This document shows, piece by piece, positions 745 to 18,001 of a stretch of 64,000 nt of DNA. The notes beneath the pieces were generated by a model, which was not told the origin of the DNA, did not search any database, and worked only from the letters and a program-made list of their open reading frames with translations. Every line of letters starts with the position of its first letter. The first letter of the stretch is position 1. Source of the DNA: Naegleria gruberi (taxonomy: Eukaryota); NCBI GenBank assembly GCA_000004985.1, contig GG738861.1. One strand, written 5' to 3'. Position numbers and translations under genes: made by a program.

Positions 745-2320
745 GTAAAGTATTCAGATTGATTTTAATTTTACATAATAGTTTTATTACAAACAAGTTT
801 TTGTTGTTTGTTTGGGAGAATTGAATTGTTTCAAAATCAATAGATTTAGAAACACTTTCTGTGGACAATACCTGGACCGGCATCCTCATATTCTTCCTTG
901 GTGATCCACATTTGTTGGAAAGTGGACAATGAAGCCAAGATGGAACCACCAATCCAGACAGAGTACTTTCTTTCAGGTGGAGCAACAACCTTAATCTTCA
1001 TGGAAGCTGGAGCCATAGCAGTCAATTCCTTGGTCATTCTTTCAGCAATACCTTCGAACATAGTAGTACCACCAGACAAGACAACGTTACCGTACAAGTC
1101 CTTTCTGATATCAATATCACATTTACCAATAGAGTTGAAAGTAGTTTCATGAACACCAGCAGCTTCCATACCAATGAAGTTTGGTTGGAACAAAACTTCT
1201 GGACATCTGAATCTTTCATTACCAACAGTGATAACATTACCGTCTGGCAATTCGTATGACTTTTCAACAGATGATGATTCAGCAGCAACCTTCATTTCAG
1301 CTTCGAAATCCAAAGCAATATAACAGAGCTTTTCCTTAATATCTCTGACGATTTCTCTTTCAGCAGTAGTATTGAATGAGTAACCTCTTTCCATCAAAAT
1401 CTTCATCAAGTAATCAGTCAAATCACGGCCAGCCAAATCCAATCTCAAAATGGCGTGTGGCAAAGCATAACCTTCATAAATTGGAACAGTGTGGGAAACA
1501 CCATCACCAGAGTCCAAAACAATACCAGTGGTTCTACCAGAAGCATACAAGGACAAGACAGCTTGAATAGCGACATACATAGCTGGAACTGAGAAGGTTT
1601 CAAACATAATTTGAGTCATCTTTTCTCTGTTTGCCTTTGGATTCAAAGGAGCTTCAGTCAACAAGACTGGGTGTTCTTCTGGAGCAACTCTCAATTCATT
1701 GTAGAAAGTGTGATGCCAGATCTTTTCCATATCGTCCCAATTGGTAACAATACCGTGTTCAATTGGATACTTCAAAGTCAAAATACCTCTCTTTGATTGA
1801 GCTTCATCACCAACATAGGCATCCTTATTACCCATACCAACCATAATGGACTTTTGCTTTGGTCTACCAATAATTGAAGGGAAGACAGCTCTTGGAGCAT
1901 CATCACCAGCAAAACCAGCTTTACACATACCAGAACCGTTATCGACAACGAGGGCTTGAACGTCTTCACAGAATGACATTTTATAGATTATTTGAATGGA
2001 TTTGTTTTTTTTGATTTTTAATTGATGATTTGTGTGTTAAAAAAATATTTAAATGAAAAATTAATGAAAGAATGATTGATGTGATTGATGGCAAGTCAAA
2101 TTGAAGTTTTAAAAAACTATTTTAGAGGTCATTTTTTAAATGTGGAAAGTCAAGTGAAGAAGAACAACTTTACAATATGACTTTTCATTCTTTTCATTCA
2201 ACACATCATCAAAATTACTAGCAATCAACTGTAAAATTTAACACATCAAACATTGCTTTGTCAACTTACTGTAATTTTCAACGTGGAAAAAATTCATCAA
2301 GTTTGAATGAAACCAACTTC
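745..2320. repeat. arm A of a ~1.57-kb inverted duplication (actin CDS plus ~340 bp 5' flank plus ~100 bp 3' flank)
   Basis: The reverse complement of 1980..2315 matches 8160..8477 with small indels (e.g. aatatttttttaacacacaaatcatcaattaaaaatcaaaaaaaaacaaatccattcaaat). The 3' flank, reverse-complemented 760..845, matches 9612..9707. Similarity ends at about 745 and about 2320. Confidence 0.8.
846..1979 (-). CDS. actin (copy A), 377 aa, single exon
   Basis: Full-length ORF with canonical actin motifs ([68 protein letters not shown]-terminus). Stop is TAA. Codons are those of a highly expressed gene (GGT, GCT, AGA, TTG, CCA). Confidence 0.95.
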
Positions 2321-3072
2321 GTCATCATGGAGGAACTAACAGCAACCAGGAATTAATTTATTGTTAGGATTGTGGTCAAGAGACGAAATTAACAAAATTG
2401 TCTCACCCTATATATTCATTGATGCATCAGTGATTCGCATTCTTGTTGTGGTGAGTCCTCTATGGACTTTGATTGGATTGATACTTGGTAATCGGATTCT
2501 CCTTCTTAATACCTCACAAATGGGAATAAGTTTTCTTCTGATTTTCAATTCCCAAGACTAGTATTTATTGTGGTCAGTCTTTTTGGCCTTACACTTGATA
2601 AGTGTGATCTACTGGATTTGGCCAAAATCATCAATAACACTGCCTCGTATCTGCTTGTTGGAATGCCAATTTTTTTAAGTTGGAAGTGCTTGTTGTTATT
2701 AAGAGAGTAATCCAAACAATAATCATTCCTCAATGGTTGTGATATTTTTGATATTTTAGACACAAAGTGGAATTTAATTTGGCTTCAGGTAGGCCTAATT
2801 GCTCTTTTTCCCAACATGAAGATTGTTGGAAACAATACTATGGAGAAAGAATAATAGATTTGGAATTGACCTATTTGGTCCTAATTGCTTGTGGATATTA
2901 TGAGTTTTTTATTGTTTTCTTAAAATTTGAGTTTCACCAATATTTGGATATTTTATTTATTACAAAGCCATACTACGGGGCAAAACATCAATCAACAAGT
3001 GAATGTTCAAGTAATTTCAATAATTGAGCAAAGTTCATCCATCACAATAAATTATTTACAATTCATAAAAAA

Positions 3073-3975
3073 ATGTCTCAAACAACAGTAAAGAATCGTT
3101 GCCCTCACAGAGTTTGGTATCGATTGTATGAATCCGATGATGTAAACTTTACAGGAAAAGACATTGCATCAGGTGAACAGCAAACTGTGGAGGGTGAATT
3201 TAAATCAGTGAAGGGATTCAAGTGGGAGAGAGGAGAGGATGAAGTTTGGGAACCAACTTTTAAAAGTCTATTAGAACCACAAGATGCTTGGAATTATCAC
3301 GTTGATTTGACTTCATTGTTTGGATGTAGACCTGCTAGCTCAATCAAAGTGTTCATGGCATGTTTGGCTGGTCCAGCAGATCCAATGACAAGGAATGACA
3401 TTATTCTCATCGATAAATTACATAAAGAGATTGGTGTACCAAGGGAGAATATTTGGATGTTTTTGGAGAGACAATGTACACCAAATGCAATTTATGAATC
3501 ATTGAAGGTGGCTGCCGAAATTTGTAATGATGAAAATGATATCCTATTTGTTTATTTGGGAGGACATGGAAGCAGAAAACAAAGTGAAGTTTATCAAGAA
3601 AGTGGAAACAAGTTTGAATATAATTTGGGAACTTGGGGAGGATCTACTCCTAGCTCACTTGTTTTGAAAGCAATTCAAAATGTAAAGTGTCCTGTTTTTA
3701 TGGTAGTGGACTCGTGTTATAGTGGCCAAATGATTGATGATGCAAAGAGTTATTTCCTTCATGCACCTCTTGCTCATGAGTTGTATGTTTTAACTTCAAC
3801 TCAGAATGACAAGTCAGCTCAAACTGGCTGGAGACTAATTCAAATGTTGATTGATATCATGATTGAAAGATCAAAGAGTATTACAATTACTCCTACTCTG
3901 ATAGGAAAGACAATTTCAGAAAATTTGAGAACCCCCTATGAAGAACAACGATCTCAATTCCAAATTATTGAATAA
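3073..3975 (+). CDS. caspase-fold (clan CD, C14-like) cysteine peptidase domain protein, 300 aa
   Basis: Putative catalytic dyad ILFVYLGGHGS ... VFMVVDSCYSGQ, with ~48 residues between His and Cys as in caspases and metacaspases. No signal peptide seen. Confidence 0.45.
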   Translation: MSQTTVKNRCPHRVWYRLYESDDVNFTGKDIASGEQQTVEGEFKSVKGFKWERGEDEVWEPTFKSLLEPQDAWNYHVDLTSLFGCRPASSIKVFMACLAGPADPMTRNDIILIDKLHKEIGVPRENIWMFLERQCTPNAIYESLKVAAEICNDENDILFVYLGGHGSRKQSEVYQESGNKFEYNLGTWGGSTPSSLVLKAIQNVKCPVFMVVDSCYSGQMIDDAKSYFLHAPLAHELYVLTSTQNDKSAQTGWRLIQMLIDIMIERSKSITITPTLIGKTISENLRTPYEEQRSQFQIIE

Positions 3976-4366
3976 GTAACTGGCCCACAACAAATCTCCC
4001 AAAATCATATTCGAATGATGAACGAGATCTACAAAATGAGAAATAAACATTAGTCTCCATTATGTCTGTAAACTGTCCCATTCAAGGAAGGGTTCAGAAA
4101 GATATGGAAAATTTGTCAAACAGTCAAACTGCATTATTGCAATGTATTTCAAGCAATTTATTTCATGTTCATTTCTTGAGATATTTGGTAGTAATGTAAA
4201 ATGTGTTTCCAATTATTAAATATCTATGTAACATTATAATTATGAACGAAATCACTTCAGTTAAATTTTGACGATGAAAACAATTCTGAAAATAGCATAA
4301 CTTTAAAAAACATAAATTTTTGCCATCAACTTTTAATGTCCAACCATCAAATCAACATAAAAAAAA

Positions 4367-7092: not shown

Positions 7093-8159
7093 TTTCATAT
7101 TAAGTGATAAATATTATTGAATATATAGACGTATTTTCAACAATTTTAAATAATTCTACCAACACCAATCCTGTGGTGAGATCCAGTTTCAAACCCTTTT
7201 AAAGGCATCCATTGCCCATCAGTAATTATAAACGAGTTGATCTCACAATAGTTCCTCGGACAATATTCCAATTTCCTTCAACACGTATTCTTCTTCCAAT
7301 CTCTCAAGCCTTTCCATAAATTGCAATACAATAATGATTCAGAAGTATGAATAAATTCAATAGTATCACATTTACATATAGTACATTTAGAACATGATCA
7401 GCACAGCCATTAGTTTCCCAAATTCCACTCTCTGAAAATCTTAAAGATTCAGTACTATCAGTCTCGTGTAGAAATTAACAAGAATACTGTGATAATTCAT
7501 TCACTCACAGAATTCAATTCAGTAGGTGAAAAGACAGGAAAGTTAATTTGATCTACCTTAAAATTGGTTTCCATCTTTGTCTAGAATATCACCTTAATTC
7601 ATTGAACAAGGGAATTTTCTAGAATATACATGTTAACTTTGCAAGAGCTTATTTCAAAAGATCAACTCTTGACACAAGTGGAAAATTAATCAACTCAAAT
7701 TAACAATGCTGTTCAATCACTGATGTCAAATATTAAAGGGTTCATCCCTATCCCCAATTACTATTCTCTTAAAATCACATAACTTTATCCAAAATGATTT
7801 CCAGTGTTTTCCCTTCTTCATTCCAGAATTAACTGAAGAAATATCATCCACTCAACTAATCATCTCAATAATACATGTGTTTATCTCAAATTATAATGTA
7901 AATATATCCACAGCACACAATGTTGCAACTTGAATTGATTGGAAGAGTAGAGTCACTTTGGGATGATTAAATTTGTTGTAGCCTCTCCACTAAATGTTAA
8001 ACCAACAACAACAATAATACCATCCAATGATAATCAACAATTGACGGCCCTCCAACTAGAAAGGGACAAGAAATAACGATGTGATATTACTATCAATATG
8101 TATGTGGTGGGAATTGTGTGAGCAGATGCAAGAATATTGTAGATGAAGGTTTTCTATTT

Positions 8160-9710
8160 TTTATCAAACTTGATGAATTTTTTCCATGTTGAAAATTACA
8201 GTAAGTTGTTAATTGCAATGTTTGCTGATTGTTTGCTCGTAATGTTTGATGATGTGTTGAATGAAAATAATGAAAAGTCATATTGTAAAGTTGTTCTTCT
8301 TCACTTGACTTTCCACATTTAAAAAATGACCTCTAAAATAGTTTTTTAAACTTCAATTTGACTTGCCATCAATCACATCAATCATTCTATCATTAATTTT
8401 TCATTTAAATATTTTTTTAACACACAAATCATCAATTAAAAATCAAAAAAAAACAAATCCATTCAAATTCTATAAAAATGTCATTCTGTGAAGACGTTCA
8501 AGCCCTCGTTGTCGATAACGGTTCTGGTATGTGTAAAGCTGGTTTTGCTGGTGATGATGCTCCAAGAGCTGTCTTCCCTTCAATTATTGGTAGACCAAAG
8601 CAAAAGTCCATTATGGTTGGTATGGGTAATAAGGATGCCTATGTTGGTGATGAAGCTCAATCCAAGAGAGGTATTTTAACTTTGAAGTATCCAATTGAAC
8701 ACGGTATTGTTACCAATTGGGATGATATGGAAAAGATCTGGCATCACACTTTCTACAATGAATTGAGAGTTGCTCCAGAAGAACATCCAGTCTTGTTGAC
8801 TGAAGCTCCTTTGAATCCAAAGGCCAATAGAGAAAAGATGACTCAAATTATGTTTGAAACTTTCTCAGTTCCAGCTATGTACGTCGCTATTCAAGCTGTC
8901 TTGTCCTTGTATGCTTCTGGTAGAACTACTGGTATTGTTTTGGACTCTGGTGATGGTGTTTCCCACACTGTTCCTATCTATGAAGGTTATGCTTTGCCAC
9001 ACGCCATCTTGAGATTGGATTTGGCTGGTCGTGATTTGACTGATTATTTGATGAAGATTTTGATGGAAAGAGGTTATTCATTCAATACTACTGCTGAAAG
9101 AGAAATTGTCAGAGATATTAAGGAAAAGCTCTGTTATATTGCTTTGGATTTCGAAGCTGAAATGAAGGTTGCTGCTGAATCATCATCAGTTGAAAAGTCA
9201 TACGAATTGCCAGATGGTAATGTTATCACTGTTGGTAACGAAAGATTCAGATGTCCAGAAGTCTTGTTCCAACCAAACTTCATTGGTATGGAAGCTGCTG
9301 GTGTTCATGAAACTACTTTCAACTCCATTGGTAAATGTGATATTGACATCAGAAAGGACTTGTACGGTAACGTTGTCTTGTCTGGTGGTACTACTATGTT
9401 CGAAGGTATTGCTGAAAGAATGACCAAGGAATTGACTGCTATGGCTCCTGCTTCAATGAAGATTAAGGTTGTTGCTCCACCTGAAAGAAAGTACTCTGTC
9501 TGGATTGGTGGTTCCATCTTGGCTTCATTGTCCACTTTCCAACAAATGTGGATCACAAAGGAAGAATATGAGGATGCCGGTCCAGGTATTGTTCACAGAA
9601 AGTGTTTCTAAATCTATTGATTTTGAAACAATTCAATTCTCCCAAACAAACAACAAAAACTTGTTTGTAATAAAACTATTATGTAAAATTAAAATCAATC
9701 TGAATACTTT
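8160..9710. repeat. arm B of the inverted actin duplication
   Basis: See arm A. The arms are separated by ~5.8 kb carrying 3073..6180 and the repeat-rich 6200..8100 region. Confidence 0.8.
8478..9611 (+). CDS. actin (copy B), protein identical to copy A
   Basis: Same 377-aa translation as 846..1979. Nucleotide sequence differs at a few synonymous sites (alternate-frame shadow ORFs 1034..1288 and 9169..9423 differ at 6 of 84 codons). Confidence 0.95.
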
Positions 9711-10004
9711 TTGTGTTGCGAAAGAGAAATTGAAATCTTTAACAAACTTCGAATAGGTTCAAAGTTATTATAGACAAAACTTGGAAATGAACTAAATTAA
9801 TCTTCCCTTAAATCAAAAAGATTCTCATTTACTCTCAAGCCCTTAAATAGTCATCATCAACATGTTGACTCTCTCTCGAATATTCGTCATCACCAACAGC
9901 ACGGAAGTTTAGGATGACGCACAAAAAGATATTATTCGTAAATAATGTACTTATGAATAAAATATATTTGGATCTATTCAAAAGGATCTAAAATAGAAAA
10001 AAAA

Positions 10005-12138
10005 ATGAGCAAACAAGAATTGCAGGAAACCATTGAAAAATCAACTAGCAAGACTGCTGCTGATGAGAGCAGTTTTGAAGAGGAAGAACATGAGGATATC
10101 ACTGCAGATGAACAAGTATTGCAAGATTTTTACAAGAAGGAAGCTCAGATTAAACAAGCTACTAAACCAAAGGAAGAAAAGCCGGTTGCTGCTTCTACTT
10201 ATGAAGATCAGGGAGAAGGTGCACATATGATTGAAATGCCATTAGATAAAACTAAGCTTTCCAAGACTGATATTAGGTCATTGCACAAAGATGAAGTAAA
10301 ACAAGCTAGAAAGGAATTGGACAAGCTTCCGAAGCCTCAAACTTTCCCAAATCATGCTGAAATTAGTTTCTTTGGTGCTTCAGGTACTGTTACTGGTAGT
10401 AAGCACATGATTACTTATGGATCTTTGAATGCTTTGATTGATTGCGGAATGTATCAAGGTTTGAAGGAACTTAGGTATGTTTTTTAATTCTTTCATTTGT
10501 TTTAATTAGATTAATTATCAAAGAGAGAGAAACTGGAAATTAATTTCATCATCAAAACCTGTTGAAACAATGTGTGATGCCATCATTATTACTCACTCTC
10601 ACTTGGATCACACTGGTTATCTTCCAAGGTATGTTTTTTATACAATGTTTTGATACAAATGAAAATTAAAACTATCAAAAATCATCAATCGGAATGAATA
10701 ATTTAATCTTCAATCATCATAATAATATCAAAATAGAATGGTTGCTCTTGGATTTACTGGACCAATCTACATGACAGAACAAACATTTAATTTGACCAAA
10801 CTAATCTTGTTGGATTCTGCTCGTTTACAAGAAGAAGATGCTCACTATGCCAATCACAAAGAAACTACTAAACATGAGGTTGCCCTTCCACTCTATTCCG
10901 AAGAAGATGTTCTCAACTGTTTCAAGTTGGTGAGAACTGTCAAGTATGGAGAAAAAATTGTTGTTAAAAGTAGATTGGATGAAGACAAATTCAGCTTTAA
11001 ATACTTTAATGCAGGACACTTGTTGGGATCATCGTTTGTTGAAATTACTCTTGACACAAAGGAAAAGATTATCTTTTCAGGAGATTTGGGAACTTTCCAC
11101 ACCTCCACTCCAATGCAACAACAACCTCAATTACCAATGGGAGCTGATTATGTTATTTGTGAAGCTACTTATGGTGGCAAGTCACACATTGATTTTGCAA
11201 CTGGTAGAGCTGCTGAGGATCAAGATTACATTATTGAAACTAAGGTTAAACCAGCGTTGAAACAAGCTGTTGAACATATTGTGGAAAATGATGGTGTAAT
11301 TCTTATTCCAGCTTTTGCCATTGGTCGTTCTCAAACTATTGCTTATCACTTGTTAAAGATGATGAGAGAGAAGGAAATTCCAACACTTCCTGTCCACATG
11401 AACTCTCCAATGTCAGTTGAAGCTCTTGATTTTTATCAACAATATTTATTGGACGAACATCAAAAGGATGCACACGAAATTTTGAGAGATGTCATTTGCC
11501 ATAATAGTGCTAAGGAATCTAAGGAACTTCACAAAAAGCTCAAGGATGGTTATTCTAAATGTGTCATTATCAGTAGTAGTGGTATGATGACAGGTGGTCG
11601 TTGTTTATTCCACTTTGAAGAATTGGCTCCTCATGAAAAGAACGTTCTCTTATTGAGTGGTTTCCAAGCTGAAGGTACAAGAGGTAGAGACTTGCTTAAT
11701 GGTGTCAGAGATATCAAATTATTGGGCAAGACTGTCAATGTTAAATGCCAAGTCATGCAAGTCCAAGGTTTGTCTGCTCACGGTGATACTGATGATGTTA
11801 TTAAATGGATTGAGGCTGCCAAAAATCCAAAACCAAAGATGGTTTTCGTTGTCCACGGAGAACCAACCTCACTCCGTAGTATGGCTAGAGAAATTTGTGT
11901 TGAATTGGATGTTAATGCTCTCGTTCCAAAGAGAGGTACAACATTCCACATGAGAACTGAACTCTCCTTCAGTCACAGTAGAAGAGCTAGTGTTGTTTCA
12001 ACCAATAACAGTTTACAAGATGTCATTTCAAGCAATATGCCTGATATTCCAAAACTTGGAAAGACCAATATGGTTCACGTGATGTATGCTGGTATTATTT
12101 TAATTGCCTTTATTGCCTTCCTTTTAAGATTCTTTTAA
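10005..12138 (+). CDS. bacterial-type β-CASP metallo-β-lactamase-fold RNA-metabolising hydrolase with acidic N-terminal extension and C-terminal TM anchor; 3 exons (10005..10474, ~10524..10628, 10737..12138)
   Basis: FFGASGTVTGSKHMI...LIDCGMYQG and AIIITHSHLDHTGYLP (HxHxDH), split by introns GTATGT...AG (~49 nt) and GTATGT...AAATAG (10629..10736). Also FNAGHLLGSS, YVICEATYGG, LSAHGD and VHGEP β-CASP motifs. C-terminus has hydrophobic helix AGIILIAFIAFLL. Confidence 0.7.
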
Positions 12139-12403
12139 ATTATTTGTAAATATATTTGACTTGTAAATTTCATTTGAATAATAATAAATTAAGTTATCCA
12201 CAACAATAAATAGGATGCTTCTCATTATTCTCTCTGCAGAGAGTTTCATCATCCATTGCACAATTCTTACTTTTTGTTCAACGGTAATGATACAAGTCAC
12301 AATCCACGCACTGATGATGACAAACACAAAAAAATTCCCTCTAACCTAATACAACGTGCTTTCATCACAACAAATAGAGAGGAAATTTTCATCATCAAAT
12401 AAT

Positions 12404-13781
12404 ATGGTCTCTAAATTATCATCAACAAGGAGTCTGTCGTCCTTTGCGATTGTACTCACCATTTTGTTCTCCATACTCGTATTGTGTAGTGCCGCAGATG
12501 AGAAGAAAACAGTTACCAGACAAACAAAAACCAACTCTGTCTATGAAACTCATGATGTTATCGATTTAGTGGTTGAAAAGTTGTGGTCTAAATACAACCC
12601 ATCAGAAACTTATAGTTATAAACAATTACCATTTTGCGATGCTAAAGGATCAACAGATACTTCATTGGGTGAAGAACTTACTGGTAGTGCTGATTCTGTC
12701 ATTTCAAATTATGATATTAGATTTGAAGGTTTGTTATTGCTTGTGTTAATTCAATCCCACTTACTATTAATTCTTTTCAACAATTTACTTTGATTGTATT
12801 ATTTTCTTTCTAATAATAATAATACCTAACAACAATAATACAATAATTAACATTAATAATGATAATGATAATAATAATTGATAATGTAAAATTCTAGTCG
12901 ATGTTCCTGCCGAGACTGAACTTTGCTCCAAGTCATTGAACAAGGAAGATTTGTCACTTTTACGTTCCTCAATCAAGGAAGATTATCTCATGCTCATGTA
13001 TTATGATGGTATTCCAATGATTGTTCACATTGGTTATTATGACACTGTTGAACACAAGTATTATCTTTACAATAGCTACAAATTCTCTTTGACTTACAAT
13101 GGTAATCATGTTATTACTGCTGTTGCTCAACCTTCTTCCAAGGTTGATATTTCTTCCGATGATGTTACTCTCATCAAGTTTAAATATTCAGCTGAATGGC
13201 AACAAACAGCCAAACAATACGTTACACGTGTTAATTACTTTATTGGTATGAACTTTAATAGTGATGAATTGGAAATCCAATGGTTCTCAATTATTAACAG
13301 CTTGATCTTTATCCTTGTTTTGACATCATTCTTGACATTTATCATTATTCGTATGCTCAGAAAGGATTATGATGCTATGGATTTGGTAATACACTATATT
13401 GAACTCCATTATTTGTATTTGAGTATGTGGGGTCAATATGGTCACGTTCCATTCCCAATTGTTTTGATGGTTGTCTTGATTTTGATTGCTGTCACTAGTT
13501 GCATTACCATTTCTCTCATTTATTTGACTCTCTCACAAGAAAACCACAATTGGTGGTGGAGAAGTATCAAGTTTGGTGGTACTAGCAGTATTTTCGTTTT
13601 TGGTTATTCCCTCTATTACTACATTATGGAAAGTGGCATGTCAGGCACTCTCCAAACAACCTTCTTTGTTGGTTACAACTTGGTTATTGCCTTTGCTGTT
13701 TTCTTAATGATGAGTACTGTTGGTTTCCTCTCTAGTTTGACCTTTGTCAAGAATATTTATAGTTCTATTAAGTGTGAATAA
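12404..13781 (+). CDS. TM9SF/nonaspanin-like membrane protein; 2 exons (12404..12728, 12898..13781)
   Basis: Signal peptide MVSKLSS...LVLCSAADE. Signatures YKQLPFC...SLGEELTG, YYDGIPMIVHIGYYD and C-terminal multi-TM region ending FVKNIYSSIKCE. Intron GTTTGT...TCTAG of 169 nt. Shorter than typical TM9SF, so further introns may be unresolved. Confidence 0.55.
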
Positions 13782-14008
13782 ATTTGATAATTTTTGTAAA
13801 ATTCAATTAGTTTTATTCATTAATGAACGGAGCAATCTCTGTTGTTGTCAATTAGGTTGATAAGTTTGACCTTGCTCTCATTGTAAAGGAAAAAAAGATT
13901 TGAAAAAGATTGTGGAATTTCCAACATTCATCAGATAACATTCTCCGTACAACCAACTGGTGTTGATGTTTTAATAATCACACGATAAAAAACCAGCACA
14001 CACACAAG

Positions 14009-16755
14009 ATGACATCACGGGGGATCAGCAAATTGTCATCCTCATCATCGTGCTCTTTCCTTTTATTTGTATTGCTATTATCATTGGCATTACTCTTAAT
14101 TAATTGTCATGCTGTTATCGGAGGTGAGTAAAATTATCATCATTATCATATCTTTACCAAATCTAAATATTGTACATTATCAATGACACAATACAATTTC
14201 ATCATCATAATCTTCTAATAGCCACTTACAAATTCCAGAGTGAATTGAAACAAATTGAAAACGGCAAAATTGTTGGTTTAGCTCAAGTGGAATATTCCTT
14301 TGAGAAATCACAACTTTTAATCAAGACTTCCTATTCATCAGAAGAAGAAGATATCGATGAAGAAGAAGCAGATAATTTATTGAAATATCAACTAGTACAT
14401 TCCAATTCATTATATTTAAATTATACCAAGTCGTTGATTGGTATTGAGGAAACCAATGATGAACCATTGAAGAATTATACACTTCCGATTGTAATTGAAT
14501 TGGGAAATTCAATTGATGGTTCAATAATAGTTGTAAATAATACGAATTATTATGTGAAAATTCCAGATTTGTTCAAGGGAAAATATGCTTTGCAAATTGT
14601 GAATCATTCTCGTGGTGGTGTTGCTTTTGGAATTTTACAAAATACTTGTGGATCTTTATCTCCAATTCAGGATTATTCAATTACTAGTTGGAAATTGTGG
14701 TTTGTTTTGGTAACTGTTTTGGGAATGTTGATTGGTTTGATTTTTGACTTGTACAGACCTTATTTTGTAATTTTTATGGCTCTTGTTTTCTTTTTATTGA
14801 GTGGAGTTTTGACATTGAAGGAGGCATTGAATGGGTTCTCAAATGATGGATTGTTGGCTATTGCATTTCTCTTCCCAGTTGTCCAACCTCTTTCTACCAA
14901 TCCAATTTTGTTGAAATTGTCAAGTATCATGTTTGGAAAACCTTGGCTTACTCCAAGATTATCCTATTTGAGAATGTTTCTCCCAATTGCCATCTTGTCC
15001 TCAATTTTGAACAATACTCCAATTGTTGTCTTGTTTTTACCAATTATTAAGGATTGGTGCAGAGCTAATGGGTTATCTCCTTCCAAGTTTTTAATTCCAT
15101 TGAGTTATTTCACTGTTGCTGGTGGTTTGTGTACATTGATTGGTACTAGTACTAATCTGGTGGTTTCAGGATTGATGGTCAATTATGGATATAGATCCTT
15201 CTCATTCTTTGAATTTATTTATATTGGTGGAATTTTACTCGTGGCTACCTTTATTTACATGATGACATTCGGATATAGTTTATTACCTAATAAGAAGGGT
15301 GGTTTATTCAAGTATGCAACTGAGAGGGCTGAAAATTTCCTTTCCCAATTGACTGTTACGGATCCACAATCTCCTCTCTTGAGAAAGAACAAGACTAAAT
15401 TATTGGAACATTTACATTTACCTAAATTGGAAATTATTGAAGTGATTCGTCCACAAGGTCGTTTTGAAGAAAGCGCCGAATCTTTGGATGATAACATGAC
15501 GGAAAAGATTGTTCCAGTTCCAGATGATTATATTGTTCAGTTGGGAGATAAGATTTTCTTCAAGGGAAGTCCAAAGGATATTATGGCCTTGCACTCAGTT
15601 ACTGGACTTTCTGATAAATTTAAGGATACTAGTATTTTCAAAGTGATTGGTACTGAAGAATTGAGAAAATCTTTGGATGAAACTACAGTCAATTTGGATC
15701 AAAATGAAGTCACTGAGGAAAATGCTCAAGAAGAAGGATCTCAACCGCAAGCAGGTGAAAATTCCCTCACTAGATTCCCAGTTCCAAAGAGTCAATTGAA
15801 ACAAGCTTTAGGTCAAGAAGAATCAGAGCCATCCAATGATCCAGAATATTTTGAAATTGTTGTAGGAACCAGTAATCCATGTTGTGGACAGACCTACAGT
15901 GAATTCTCTCAATTCTATCAAGTTGCATTATTCGCAGTGAGACATCGTGAGTCAATTATCAAATCAACCACTGATGCCAGTGACTTTTCTGAACTCAAAG
16001 TTCAAGTTGGTGATACAGTTCTCGTTTTATGCAAGGCAGATTTCTATGAGAAACATAGAGAAAGTCTCGAATTTTTCAGCATTTCTAGATGTAGTGTCAA
16101 TCCAAAAATCGATCACAGACCATTCATTGTGAAATTTAGAGGAAGAGAGTTTAACTTGTGGTGGTGGGAATATTTAATCTTTCCAATCTTTATGGCCATG
16201 ATTATTGGAGCTAGTGCTGGAATTCCAATGGTCATTTGTGCAATGGTTGCATTTGGATTGATGGTCATTTTGAAATTGCTCTCACCAACCAAAGCTATAG
16301 CCTCTGTCGATTGGGAATTAATCATTCTGGTAGCATGTTCTTTAGGTGTTGGTACTGGTATTAGAAATTCAGGCATTTCTGAAGCATTTTCTGAACTCAT
16401 CAATGCCATGAATATTCCGGATATTATTTTGCCAGCCATCATGTTCTTCATTACTCAAACCATCACTCAGGTCATTACCAATAACAGTGCAGCAGCCACA
16501 ACTCTCCCACTCGCTCTAGCATTGGCTCAATCAAGAAATTTAAACTCTCAAATGTTTGGAATTATTGTTGCTGTTGCCTCCTCCAGTGAATTTGCAACTC
16601 CAATCGGATATCAATGCAATTTAATTATTCAAGGACCTGGTGGATATGGATTTTTGGATTATGTAAAGGTGGGTCTTCCTCTCAATATGATTTACTTTGT
16701 GCTGTGTAGTGTGTTTATTCCATTAATTTGGGGATTGAGAGAACCAAACTTTTAA
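14009..16755 (+). CDS. DASS/CitT-ArsB-superfamily anion permease with central tandem TrkA-C (RCK_C)-like domains; 2 exons (14009..14123, 14222..16755)
   Basis: Exon 1 encodes the signal peptide MTSRGISKL...LLLINCHAVIGG, followed by intron GTGAGT...TAATAG (14124..14221). Two multi-helix permease halves (GTSTNLVVSGL, ANSIGYQCNLIIQGPGGYG) flank a soluble ~330-aa region. Confidence 0.6.
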
Positions 16756-16813
16756 TAAATCCTTAAATAATATCGTTAACAAGTTTGAAATTTAATTAAA
16801 TCTCATATTCTCT

Positions 16814-18001
16814 TTAAGGTTGAAAACAATCGAAAAATCGTTTCTTTCTCTGCAATGCTTCACATCCATATTCCTCATAATCCGCCATAGCAACAGCCAT
16901 TTCTGCGAAGGACTCAAGGGAACCAGCAATACTTCCTCCAATCCATGATGAGTAACGTCTCTCAGGAGCTGCCACCACACTTAATCTCAATGATTTTGGT
17001 ATTAATTGTGCCAAATCATGTCTAATTCTGTCTGCCAGTCCAGGAAGGAGCGAAACTCCTCCCGAAATGATAATATTATTGTAGAGACCGTAGCGAGTGT
17101 CAATGTTTGATGCTTGCATGCTGTCTTGAATAATATCAACAATTCCTGGATATTCAGAATTAATTATTTGAGGATTGAAGAGAATTTCATTACATGTGAA
17201 ATGTTCATGAGATAGATTTAACACTTGACCATCAGGTAGCTCATACTGTTGATGTCCTTCACTAGACATTCGACTATTTTCATATTCTCTATCATAATCC
17301 TCTGCAACACGACCAATTTTCCTAATCATTTGATCCACAATTGACCTATTCCCTTCCAAACAAATTCCATGATTTTCACTCAACATTTTAATCATGTAAT
17401 CTGTAACATTGGCTCCTCCAAAATTAATCCTCCTCGTTGTATTATTATCTACAAATCCCCAATAACATGGCACTATCTGAATCACACCCTCTCCCAAGCA
17501 TAAACTCAGTGCCGTCGTTGTTCCACATGCATAGACAGACATGAGAGGTTGTGGAGAGCAGGCAAACGATCCAAATCCATACTTTTCAAAGAATAATTGC
17601 ATTAAATGATTCTTCTGTGAGGAGGGTTGTAAAATTGAATCAATGAATAGTATTGATCTCGATTCATTGTCTGAAATTTCACATTCAGAATTTTGAGTAT
17701 TTTTTGAGAGAATTTCTTGAAAGGTATAATCAAGTAAAATTTCCATCAAATCCCAATTTTTAATAATTCCATTTCGGATGGGATAGTTTAGATTGAGAAT
17801 TCCTTCTCGTTTAATTGCCTGATCACCAATATAACCTGATTTCATAGTGCAATCACTAATCATGATGGGTGAATATTTAGGTGTTCCGATACAGGAAGGA
17901 AAGACACAGCTGGGTGCATCTTCTCCTGCTATGCCTGCATAGAATGTGCTTGAACCGCAATCTAAAACGAATACTTCTGGCCACTCATCACTGAATGACA
18001 T
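16814..18001 (-). CDS. actin-related protein (divergent actin fold), 395 aa
   Basis: N-terminal VLDCGSSTFYAGIAGEDAPSCVFPS and C-terminal LRLSVVAAPERRYSSWIGGSIAGSLESF are actin-family signatures with insertions. Subfamily is not assignable by eye. Confidence 0.65.
   Translation of the reverse strand: MSFSDEWPEVFVLDCGSSTFYAGIAGEDAPSCVFPSCIGTPKYSPIMISDCTMKSGYIGDQAIKREGILNLNYPIRNGIIKNWDLMEILLDYTFQEILSKNTQNSECEISDNESRSILFIDSILQPSSQKNHLMQLFFEKYGFGSFACSPQPLMSVYACGTTTALSLCLGEGVIQIVPCYWGFVDNNTTRRINFGGANVTDYMIKMLSENHGICLEGNRSIVDQMIRKIGRVAEDYDREYENSRMSSEGHQQYELPDGQVLNLSHEHFTCNEILFNPQIINSEYPGIVDIIQDSMQASNIDTRYGLYNNIIISGGVSLLPGLADRIRHDLAQLIPKSLRLSVVAAPERRYSSWIGGSIAGSLESFAEMAVAMADYEEYGCEALQRKKRFFDCFQP

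Follow-up and report, generated by a model that had tools for sequence, protein, structure and literature searches.

A bacterial-lineage β-CASP ribonuclease gene in Naegleria gruberi, probably acquired by horizontal transfer and remodelled with a predicted tail anchor

Results

Structure of the gene and its product

We analysed a 64,000-nt stretch of Naegleria gruberi contig GG738861.1 (the window, to which all positions refer) and describe here a three-exon gene, all parts of which lie on the + strand, that encodes a 658-amino acid (aa) protein of the β-CASP metallo-β-lactamase (MBL) group (Table 1). Two open reading frames (ORFs) of the same strand underlie the gene. A preliminary description of the locus, made from the DNA letters alone, had recognised two introns, and both were located by a splice model: the pair listed in Table 1, each with the form GTATGT...AG, is the sole splice combination that gives an open frame together with the junction LKELRERNW. 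As this junction is typical of the family, this combination was chosen. An alternative acceptor of intron 1 at position 10529, which would give a product of 656 aa, was rejected because it removes the residues E and R of the family-conserved LRERNW and conflicts with the annotated protein. The second intron had been placed directly after the HxHxDH box; it does exist, but it lies six codons further downstream, after ...HLDHTGYLPR. The spliced product is identical at 658 of 658 residues to the N. gruberi NEG-M protein XP_002678481.1 (EFC45737.1, UniProt D2VB55), which is annotated as "beta-lactamase family exonuclease". The gene is thus not new, its model being already public in GenBank. Nothing beyond background emerged when the locus was scanned with Rfam and for promoters and terminators.

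Catalytic core

Three Pfam models matched the product above their cut-offs, namely Beta-Casp (2.6e-28, 99.4 bits; cut-off 27.7), RMMBL, the "RNA specificity" domain (3.4e-15, 56.2 bits; cut-off 21.6), and Lactamase_B_6 (6.7e-13). All seven β-CASP motifs are present: motif 1 (D146), motif 2 (H181, H183, D185 and H186), motif 3 (H286), motif 4 (D308), motif A (E334), motif B (H540) and motif C (H565). The MBL motifs 1-4 are invariant or nearly so across 120 homologues. When the protein was aligned with TTHA0252, the residues H61, S378, H380 and H400 of the latter fell on H183, S538, H540 and H565, so that the counterparts of S378 and H380, the residues mutated in the TTHA0252 crystal structures, are kept in the Naegleria protein. 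Motif C is a His and not a Val, as in the RNA-specific β-CASP members, and the RMMBL domain accompanies it. An AlphaFold model built on the 120-sequence alignment reached a mean predicted local distance difference test (pLDDT) score of 85, with values above 90 for most of residues 81-600. Comparison of this fold with the Protein Data Bank (PDB) matched every solved β-CASP ribonuclease (RNase) with E values of 1e-31 to 1e-37, a range in which the subfamilies are not separable by fold.

Judged by these motifs and domains, the protein is a complete zinc-dependent β-CASP MBL RNase. In view of the seven intact motifs, the His at motif C, the RMMBL domain and the conserved Ser/His pair, it should be active as a 5'-to-3' exo- and/or endoribonuclease like TTHA0252. 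TTHA0252 itself has been shown to be a 5'-3' exo-RNase, is probably an endonuclease as well, and its deletion changes mRNA abundance (PMC4229858).

Relationship to other β-CASP proteins

The searches together covered about 15 billion proteins, including an exhaustive HMMER scan of 1.84 billion representatives at 50% identity. Outside Naegleria and Willaertia, the closest relatives are thousands of stand-alone bacterial β-CASP proteins of 450-470 aa from Acidobacteriota, Bdellovibrionota and others, which score up to 368 bits (E=1e-104) with 40-45% identity over the core. All other β-CASP groups scored far lower: 175 bits (1.6e-50) for TTHA0252, the best solved structure by sequence with 29.5% identity; 173 bits (6e-50) for the PDB sequence of type VII Cas14; about 146 bits (about 1e-41) for Integrator 11 and archaeal CPSF1; and 85-123 bits (1e-34 to 4e-23) for CPSF73/CPSF3 orthologues. 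Neither an RNase J chain nor an SNM1/Artemis chain was returned from the PDB sequences at E<=1e-3, and no RNase J model was among the NCBIfam matches. In the HMMER scan, the amoebal cluster was the only one above 44% identity, and the rest of the top 150 fell at 32-44%. Of the best representatives, thirty clusters were looked up, among them every one with an unusual length, and all were bacterial or metagenomic except that of N. gruberi, which alone was eukaryotic. With one genome per GTDB species, a further scan brought more than 600 bacterial loci (33-40% identity), which are spread over many phyla and come from sources such as Tepidiforma, Blastocatellia, Pseudomonas, Legionella waltersii, a Rickettsiales bin and Anaeromyxobacter. 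The amoebal proteins and their bacterial relatives also have in common a helical insertion (DSARLQEEDAxYANxK...HxxALPLY) that is mostly missing from TTHA0252.

For the phylogeny, a neighbour-joining tree with Kimura distances was computed from 193 sequences over 445 trimmed core columns with 200 bootstraps, using TTHA0252 and human CPSF3 as outgroups (the CPSF3 sequence was checked against PDB 6V4X, 1093 bits). The five amoebal sequences were monophyletic in all 200 bootstraps, and in 171 of 200 they lay inside a bacterial clade that excludes both outgroups. The distance of the Naegleria protein to human CPSF3 was 1.85, compared with 0.97-1.27 to the bacterial members. These scores and the tree support the assignment of the enzyme to the bacterial stand-alone β-CASP lineage (COG1236, TTHA0252-like) and not to CPSF73, Integrator or RNase J. 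The preliminary description had assigned the gene to the bacterial and not the CPSF73/Integrator type, and had proposed a phylogeny as the check; the assignment was borne out, as no placement inside CPSF73, Integrator or RNase J was obtained. A detail to be corrected is its term "TTHA0252-type", as the nearest proteins are other bacterial stand-alone members. In this connection, TTHA0252 is matched slightly better by human CPSF3 (183 bits) than by the Naegleria protein (175 bits), while the score of the latter against human CPSF73 is only about 87 bits. These values suggest that TTHA0252 is a fairly central and slow-evolving member, and that its name is a loose label for this bacterial clade.

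Several of the closest bacterial relatives (nine sequences) carry the core fused to a C-terminal LOG/SLOG nucleotide-binding domain (PF03641/PF18306, TIGR00730-type), a hint that some of the bacterial family have roles regulated by nucleotides or related to conflict. Other long bacterial homologues are fusions of other kinds, one of them annotated as a transketolase fusion. PADLOC defence-system models gave no match, and two bacterial genomes showed no conserved operon context. The family is also represented by a homologue in the IMG/VR giant-virus metagenomic bin GVMAG-S-404869-41 (match at 3001-4329), where it could be bin contamination.

Amoeba-specific additions and predicted topology

Compared with the bacterial proteins, with which the core is colinear, the amoebal proteins carry in total 118-250 additional residues at the N-terminus and about 58 at the C-terminus, as well as small inserts in the core (SSSK, SRLDEDK and about 15 residues after motif A). 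The outermost N-terminal region varies in both length (58-209 residues) and sequence between the three species compared but is acidic in each, with an isoelectric point (pI) of 4.4 in N. gruberi, 4.6 in N. fowleri and 4.75 in Willaertia; the acidic extension named in the preliminary description was thus found in N. gruberi residues 1-80. It is followed by a conserved module, kept in the same three species, in which a helix is predicted at residues 87-106 and packs on the catalytic domain in the AlphaFold model. This module has no bacterial counterpart. A bacterial origin was considered for it and rejected, since the tblastn matches to query residues 59-110 were run-ons into non-homologous upstream sequence.

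At the other end of the protein, residues 637-655 form the sole strongly hydrophobic segment. Its top Kyte-Doolittle window is 2.5, it ends three residues before the C-terminus, and the only windows above 1.6 in the whole protein fall at residues 633-658, where AlphaFold predicts a helix (634-657). A hydrophobic C-terminal tail was present in 5 of 5 amoebal sequences and in 0 of 276 other homologues, in agreement with the membrane anchor that had been noticed from the sequence at the outset. Only a few residues follow the helix (RFF in Naegleria and KLFL in Willaertia), and the grand average of hydropathy (GRAVY) of the helix is 2.5-3.4. Within Naegleria, the ratio of non-synonymous to synonymous substitution (dN/dS) of the C-terminal extension is 0.02-0.19.

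Tail-anchored proteins are those in which the transmembrane helix is still inside the ribosome when translation ends, so that insertion is post-translational and the N-terminal domain stays cytosolic. The sequence features of this class were found here, namely one C-terminal transmembrane segment, no signal peptide and no other segment. Because there is no signal or transit sequence and the only membrane segment lies at the extreme C-terminus, the product should be a tail-anchored, cytosol-facing, membrane-tethered enzyme. An N-terminus that is acidic and not amphipathic speaks against a signal peptide or a mitochondrial presequence. The preliminary description had called the protein an organellar RNase, and this part was not supported, as no presequence- or signal-like N-terminus was found and the single transmembrane helix lies at the C-terminal end; an RNase held by a membrane tether on the cytosolic side of an organelle would be the better wording. 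The helix hydrophobicity and a tail charge of +1 weakly favour the endoplasmic reticulum (ER) or endomembranes as the most likely site.

Distribution and genomic setting

In addition to N. gruberi, the gene was found in N. fowleri, where it lies on a contig of 579 kb (79% identity), in Willaertia magna (69% identity), in a Logan-assembled Naegleria contig (95% identity) and in a metagenomic Naegleria-like contig (81% identity). A comparison of intron positions in relatives had been suggested beforehand, and it showed that the four Naegleria sequences share both introns at identical codon positions, in phase 2 within Arg codons, with differing intron lengths and sequences; exon 2 has the same length of 105 nt in all four. 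In Willaertia, the gene is a single uninterrupted ORF of 2364 nt with neither intron. The GC content at third codon positions (GC3) is 0.30, compared with 0.27-0.36 in the neighbouring genes and 0.85-0.94 in GC-rich bacterial homologues, and the DNA of the window has 34% GC. Pairwise dN/dS values of the core are 0.07-0.10, which indicate purifying selection. The gene is flanked by an actin gene upstream and by a TM9SF/EMP70-type gene downstream (Table 1). The view of the locus as a resident nuclear gene, already put forward in the preliminary description, therefore agrees with the conserved spliceosomal introns, the host-like GC3, the eukaryotic neighbours and the purifying selection. Contamination is excluded by the introns, the host-like composition, the eukaryotic flanks and the independent assemblies.

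The gene order of the Logan-assembled contig (95% identity) matches that of the window at 8000-17000, with EMP70 and then CitMHS downstream of the orthologue. The order differs in N. fowleri, where FAD-binding, CS-domain, FAM210, LYR and GST genes are the neighbours, and in the metagenomic contig (81% identity), where PP4R3 is a neighbour. The window also holds an inverted duplication of about 1.47 kb, the arms of which are 98-99% identical, lie about 6 kb apart and each contain an identical 377-aa actin gene in opposite orientation. The right arm ends about 295 bp upstream of the β-CASP start codon. In addition, an ORF for a divergent actin-like or actin-related protein of 395 aa is found further downstream.

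Table 1 Features of the β-CASP gene and its surroundings in the window
Feature	Position	Strand	Remarks
Whole gene	10005-12138	+	three exons, 658-aa product
Underlying ORF 1	10005-10487	+	
Underlying ORF 2	10738-12138	+	
Exon 1	10005-10474	+	codons 1-156 and two bases of codon 157; acidic disordered region, conserved N-terminal helix module and first MBL strands including motif 1 (D146); from splice model, identity to XP_002678481.1 and alignment
Intron 1	10475-10523	+	49 nt, GTATGT...AG, phase 2, within Arg codon (LKELR/ERNW), 16% GC
Exon 2	10524-10628	+	105 nt; HxHxDH motif 2 (H181-H186) at 10594-10611
Intron 2	10629-10736	+	108 nt, GTATGT...AG, phase 2, within Arg codon (GYLPR/MVALGF), 19% GC
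Exon 3	10737-12138	+	rest of MBL, β-CASP, RMMBL, linker and transmembrane tail; TAA stop included
Acidic N-terminal region, aa 1-80	10005-10244	+	pI 4.4, poorly conserved, predicted disordered, pLDDT 30-66
Conserved N-terminal module, aa 81-118	10245-10358	+	DKTKLSKxDIxxLHKDEVKQ..KEL.K.PKP..FPNHAE; from alignment, pLDDT 92-96
Catalytic core, aa 119-600	10359-11961	+	split by both introns; from Pfam, TTHA0252 motif mapping and alignment, pLDDT >90
Linker, aa 601-636	11962-12069	+	basic, serine-rich, predicted disordered; absent from bacterial homologues
C-terminal transmembrane helix and tail, aa 637-658	12070-12135	+	MVHVMYAGIILIAFIAFLL-RFF, predicted tail anchor
TM9SF/EMP70-type gene	from ~12396	+	downstream neighbour
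Actin gene, right arm	8478-9611	+	upstream neighbour
Right arm of inverted duplication	8245-9710		
Left arm of inverted duplication	747-2213		
Actin gene, left arm	846-1979	-	
Actin-like/actin-related protein ORF	16814-18001	-	395 aa

Discussion

Taken together, the results are best explained by a nuclear β-CASP RNase gene of bacterial lineage that was horizontally acquired and remodelled and that now encodes a tail-anchored product, and we give this reading a probability of about 0.72. We propose that the gene passed in a single transfer from a bacterium to the common ancestor of Naegleria and Willaertia (Vahlkampfiidae, Heterolobosea). After the transfer, the base composition would have shifted to that of the host, and two spliceosomal introns would have been inserted at AG/A sites in the Naegleria lineage, with Willaertia staying intronless. 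The core would also have gained an acidic disordered N-terminus, a conserved helix of 40 residues packed against the catalytic domain, and a basic linker ending in one very hydrophobic transmembrane helix near the C-terminus. As a tail-anchored protein, the product would insert post-translationally and hold its nuclease domain in the cytosol at the membrane surface, where it would cleave or degrade nearby RNAs. Horizontal transfers into Naegleria are well documented. For the present gene, the three features of a transferred gene were all found, namely a patchy distribution in eukaryotes, nesting among prokaryotic homologues and integration into the host genome. Since only Naegleria and Willaertia carry the gene among all proteins searched, transfer from a bacterium is supported as the best explanation of its origin, and the candidate status that the preliminary description had given to horizontal transfer gains from this restricted distribution and from the nesting in the bacterial family.

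The same description had left an endosymbiotic origin beside it. Vertical or endosymbiotic descent, in which the gene would go back to the last eukaryotic common ancestor or to the ancestor of mitochondria and would have been lost nearly everywhere except in vahlkampfiid amoebae, could draw on the occurrence of the family in Alphaproteobacteria, including the Rickettsiales genome bin, and the tree does not settle the amoebal sister group, which leaves room for an alphaproteobacterial donor. However, homologues from Acidobacteriota, Chloroflexota or Bdellovibrionota are at least as close as the alphaproteobacterial ones (33-38% identity), only the Naegleria and Willaertia proteins exceed bacterial similarity in two very large searches, and very many independent losses would be required, while the intronless gene of Willaertia fits a comparatively recent prokaryotic arrival; we therefore consider such descent very improbable. 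A giant virus as the vector was considered and set aside, as the GVMAG-S-404869-41 homologue (32% identity) is no closer than the bacterial ones. That the gene is a divergent paralogue of eukaryotic CPSF73 or Integrator 11, or a bacterial contaminant of the assembly, is extremely improbable. The fold search would allow the former, as it does not separate the β-CASP RNase families (E about 1e-31 to 1e-37), but the scores to CPSF73 and Integrator 11 are 2.5-4 times below those to the bacterial family, the distance to human CPSF3 exceeds every distance to the bacterial members, and no C-terminal domain of the CPSF73 or Integrator 11 type is present. A contaminant would be hard to reconcile with the introns, the host-like composition, the eukaryotic flanks and the presence of the gene in independent N. 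gruberi, N. fowleri and Willaertia assemblies and two further Naegleria contigs.

With regard to location and activity, two other readings have to be weighed against a membrane-tethered RNase. The protein might be imported into mitochondria or another organelle and act there on organellar transcripts, as it belongs to a bacterial type of RNase and prokaryotic ancestry is known for several RNases of eukaryotic organelles (for example, the review PMC9181182); the C-terminal hydrophobic helix could then serve as an anchor in the inner membrane. We regard import as quite unlikely, because the N-terminus is acidic, variable and predicted to be disordered, which is the opposite of a basic amphipathic presequence, no N-terminal hydrophobic signal is present, and a transmembrane helix three residues before the stop codon is a classical tail anchor, which leaves the N-terminal domain in the cytosol. 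A DNA nuclease, namely an exonuclease for DNA repair or processing like SNM1/Artemis or the ligase-associated enzymes, is brought to mind by the database name "exonuclease", by the DNA nucleases known among β-CASP enzymes and by the NCBIfam model of the ligase-associated DNA damage response exonuclease, which matched weakly (31.8 bits). This match is far under the cut-off of 325 bits, however, and no SNM1/Artemis chain was among the PDB matches at E<=1e-3; the RMMBL match well above its cut-off and the motif C His, as in RNA-specific members, speak for RNA, which is also the substrate of the nearest characterised relative, TTHA0252. Accordingly, DNA as the substrate appears very unlikely.

Several points weigh against our reading of a transferred and tail-anchored RNase. 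The best bacterial sister group of the amoebal clade was recovered in only 15 of 200 bootstraps, and the tree is distance-based, not a maximum-likelihood tree, and has two outgroups only. The absence of the gene from other eukaryotes depends on the sampling of the databases, and the gene could be present in heteroloboseans or other protists not yet sampled. Given an intronless ancestor, gain in Naegleria is the simplest account of the introns, but the pattern could instead reflect the loss of both in Willaertia, which is less simple. The rules that separate tail anchors of the ER from those of the mitochondrial outer membrane were derived from yeast and mammals and may not hold in Heterolobosea. 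In addition, an exact look-up of the 658-aa product found no spliced transcript contig, and in the literature we found no paper on this protein, citing its accessions, or linking Naegleria with β-CASP enzymes.

Compared with known systems, the amoebal enzyme is most like the bacterial stand-alone β-CASP RNases (COG1236; Acidobacteriota, Bdellovibrionota, Chloroflexota and Pseudomonadota), with which it is colinear over a core of about 480 residues and shares all motifs, the helical insertion (here DSARLQEEDAxYANRK..H.PALPLY) and the LRxRNW motif. In contrast, those proteins either lack terminal additions or end in a LOG/SLOG domain, have no C-terminal transmembrane helix or amoebal small inserts and are encoded by intronless genes, and the amoebal proteins depart from the core-only architecture (about 430-470 aa) of the bacterial family. 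TTHA0252 (PDB 2DKF, 3IEK and others) has the same MBL, β-CASP and RMMBL core with conserved catalytic residues, but the QEEDA...ALPLY insertion is for the most part missing from it, the amoebae fall into a bacterial subclade to which it does not belong, and it is soluble without extensions. CPSF73 (CPSF3/Ysh1) and Integrator 11 share the fold and catalytic motifs and are RNA endo/exonucleases, but they are far less similar in sequence (85-146 bits, 20-24% identity); unlike the amoebal protein, they are subunits of nuclear complexes, belong to another clade and carry a C-terminal heterodimerisation domain, whereas only the linker and the transmembrane helix follow residue 600 in Naegleria. Cas14 of type VII CRISPR-Cas gives the best NCBIfam match (NF045584, 309 bits) and the highest structural-alignment identity (29-30%), but the match is far under the cut-off of 800 bits, the C-terminal region of Cas14 is missing, and the present gene is eukaryotic and has no CRISPR context. 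Similarly, the match to archaeal aCPSF1 (TIGR03675) reaches 252.5 bits against a cut-off of 580, with no KH domain by Pfam, and RNase J is set apart by the lack of any match of its own in the searches described above. Membrane-tethered, cytosol-facing RNases are known from bacteria (RNase Y) and from animals (PNLDC1, and MitoPLD/Zucchini on the mitochondrial outer membrane). They share with the amoebal protein the concept of a single terminal transmembrane helix, but their catalytic folds are unrelated and the likeness would be one of functional analogy only.

In conclusion, the gene can be taken as a clean and datable example of how a bacterial gene may be remodelled after transfer into a eukaryote. 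It leaves current concepts unchanged: what it illustrates is gene transfer, and the system is not of a new kind. A further proposal, which we consider unlikely, is that the protein is a domesticated bacterial exo/endoribonuclease, tail-anchored on the cytosolic face of the ER or another organelle, that serves a membrane RNA decay or surveillance function without counterpart in other eukaryotes. If this were true, its targets could be, for example, membrane-bound mRNAs or foreign RNA from ingested or intracellular microbes, and the pathogen N. fowleri would hold a bacterial-type β-CASP active site for testing with benzoxaborole-like inhibitors. A human orthologue is not known to us, although no search for one was made. 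The orthologue in N. fowleri is of some practical interest in view of the druggability of β-CASP sites. Benzoxaboroles, for example, act on CPSF3 (PMC5343452, PMC12970967). For the family, the finding extends the bacterial COG1236/TTHA0252-like RNase lineage into a eukaryote, separately from the universal CPSF73/Integrator 11, and for the amoebae it suggests that an added N-terminal helix and a tail anchor may re-address a soluble bacterial enzyme to a membrane surface.

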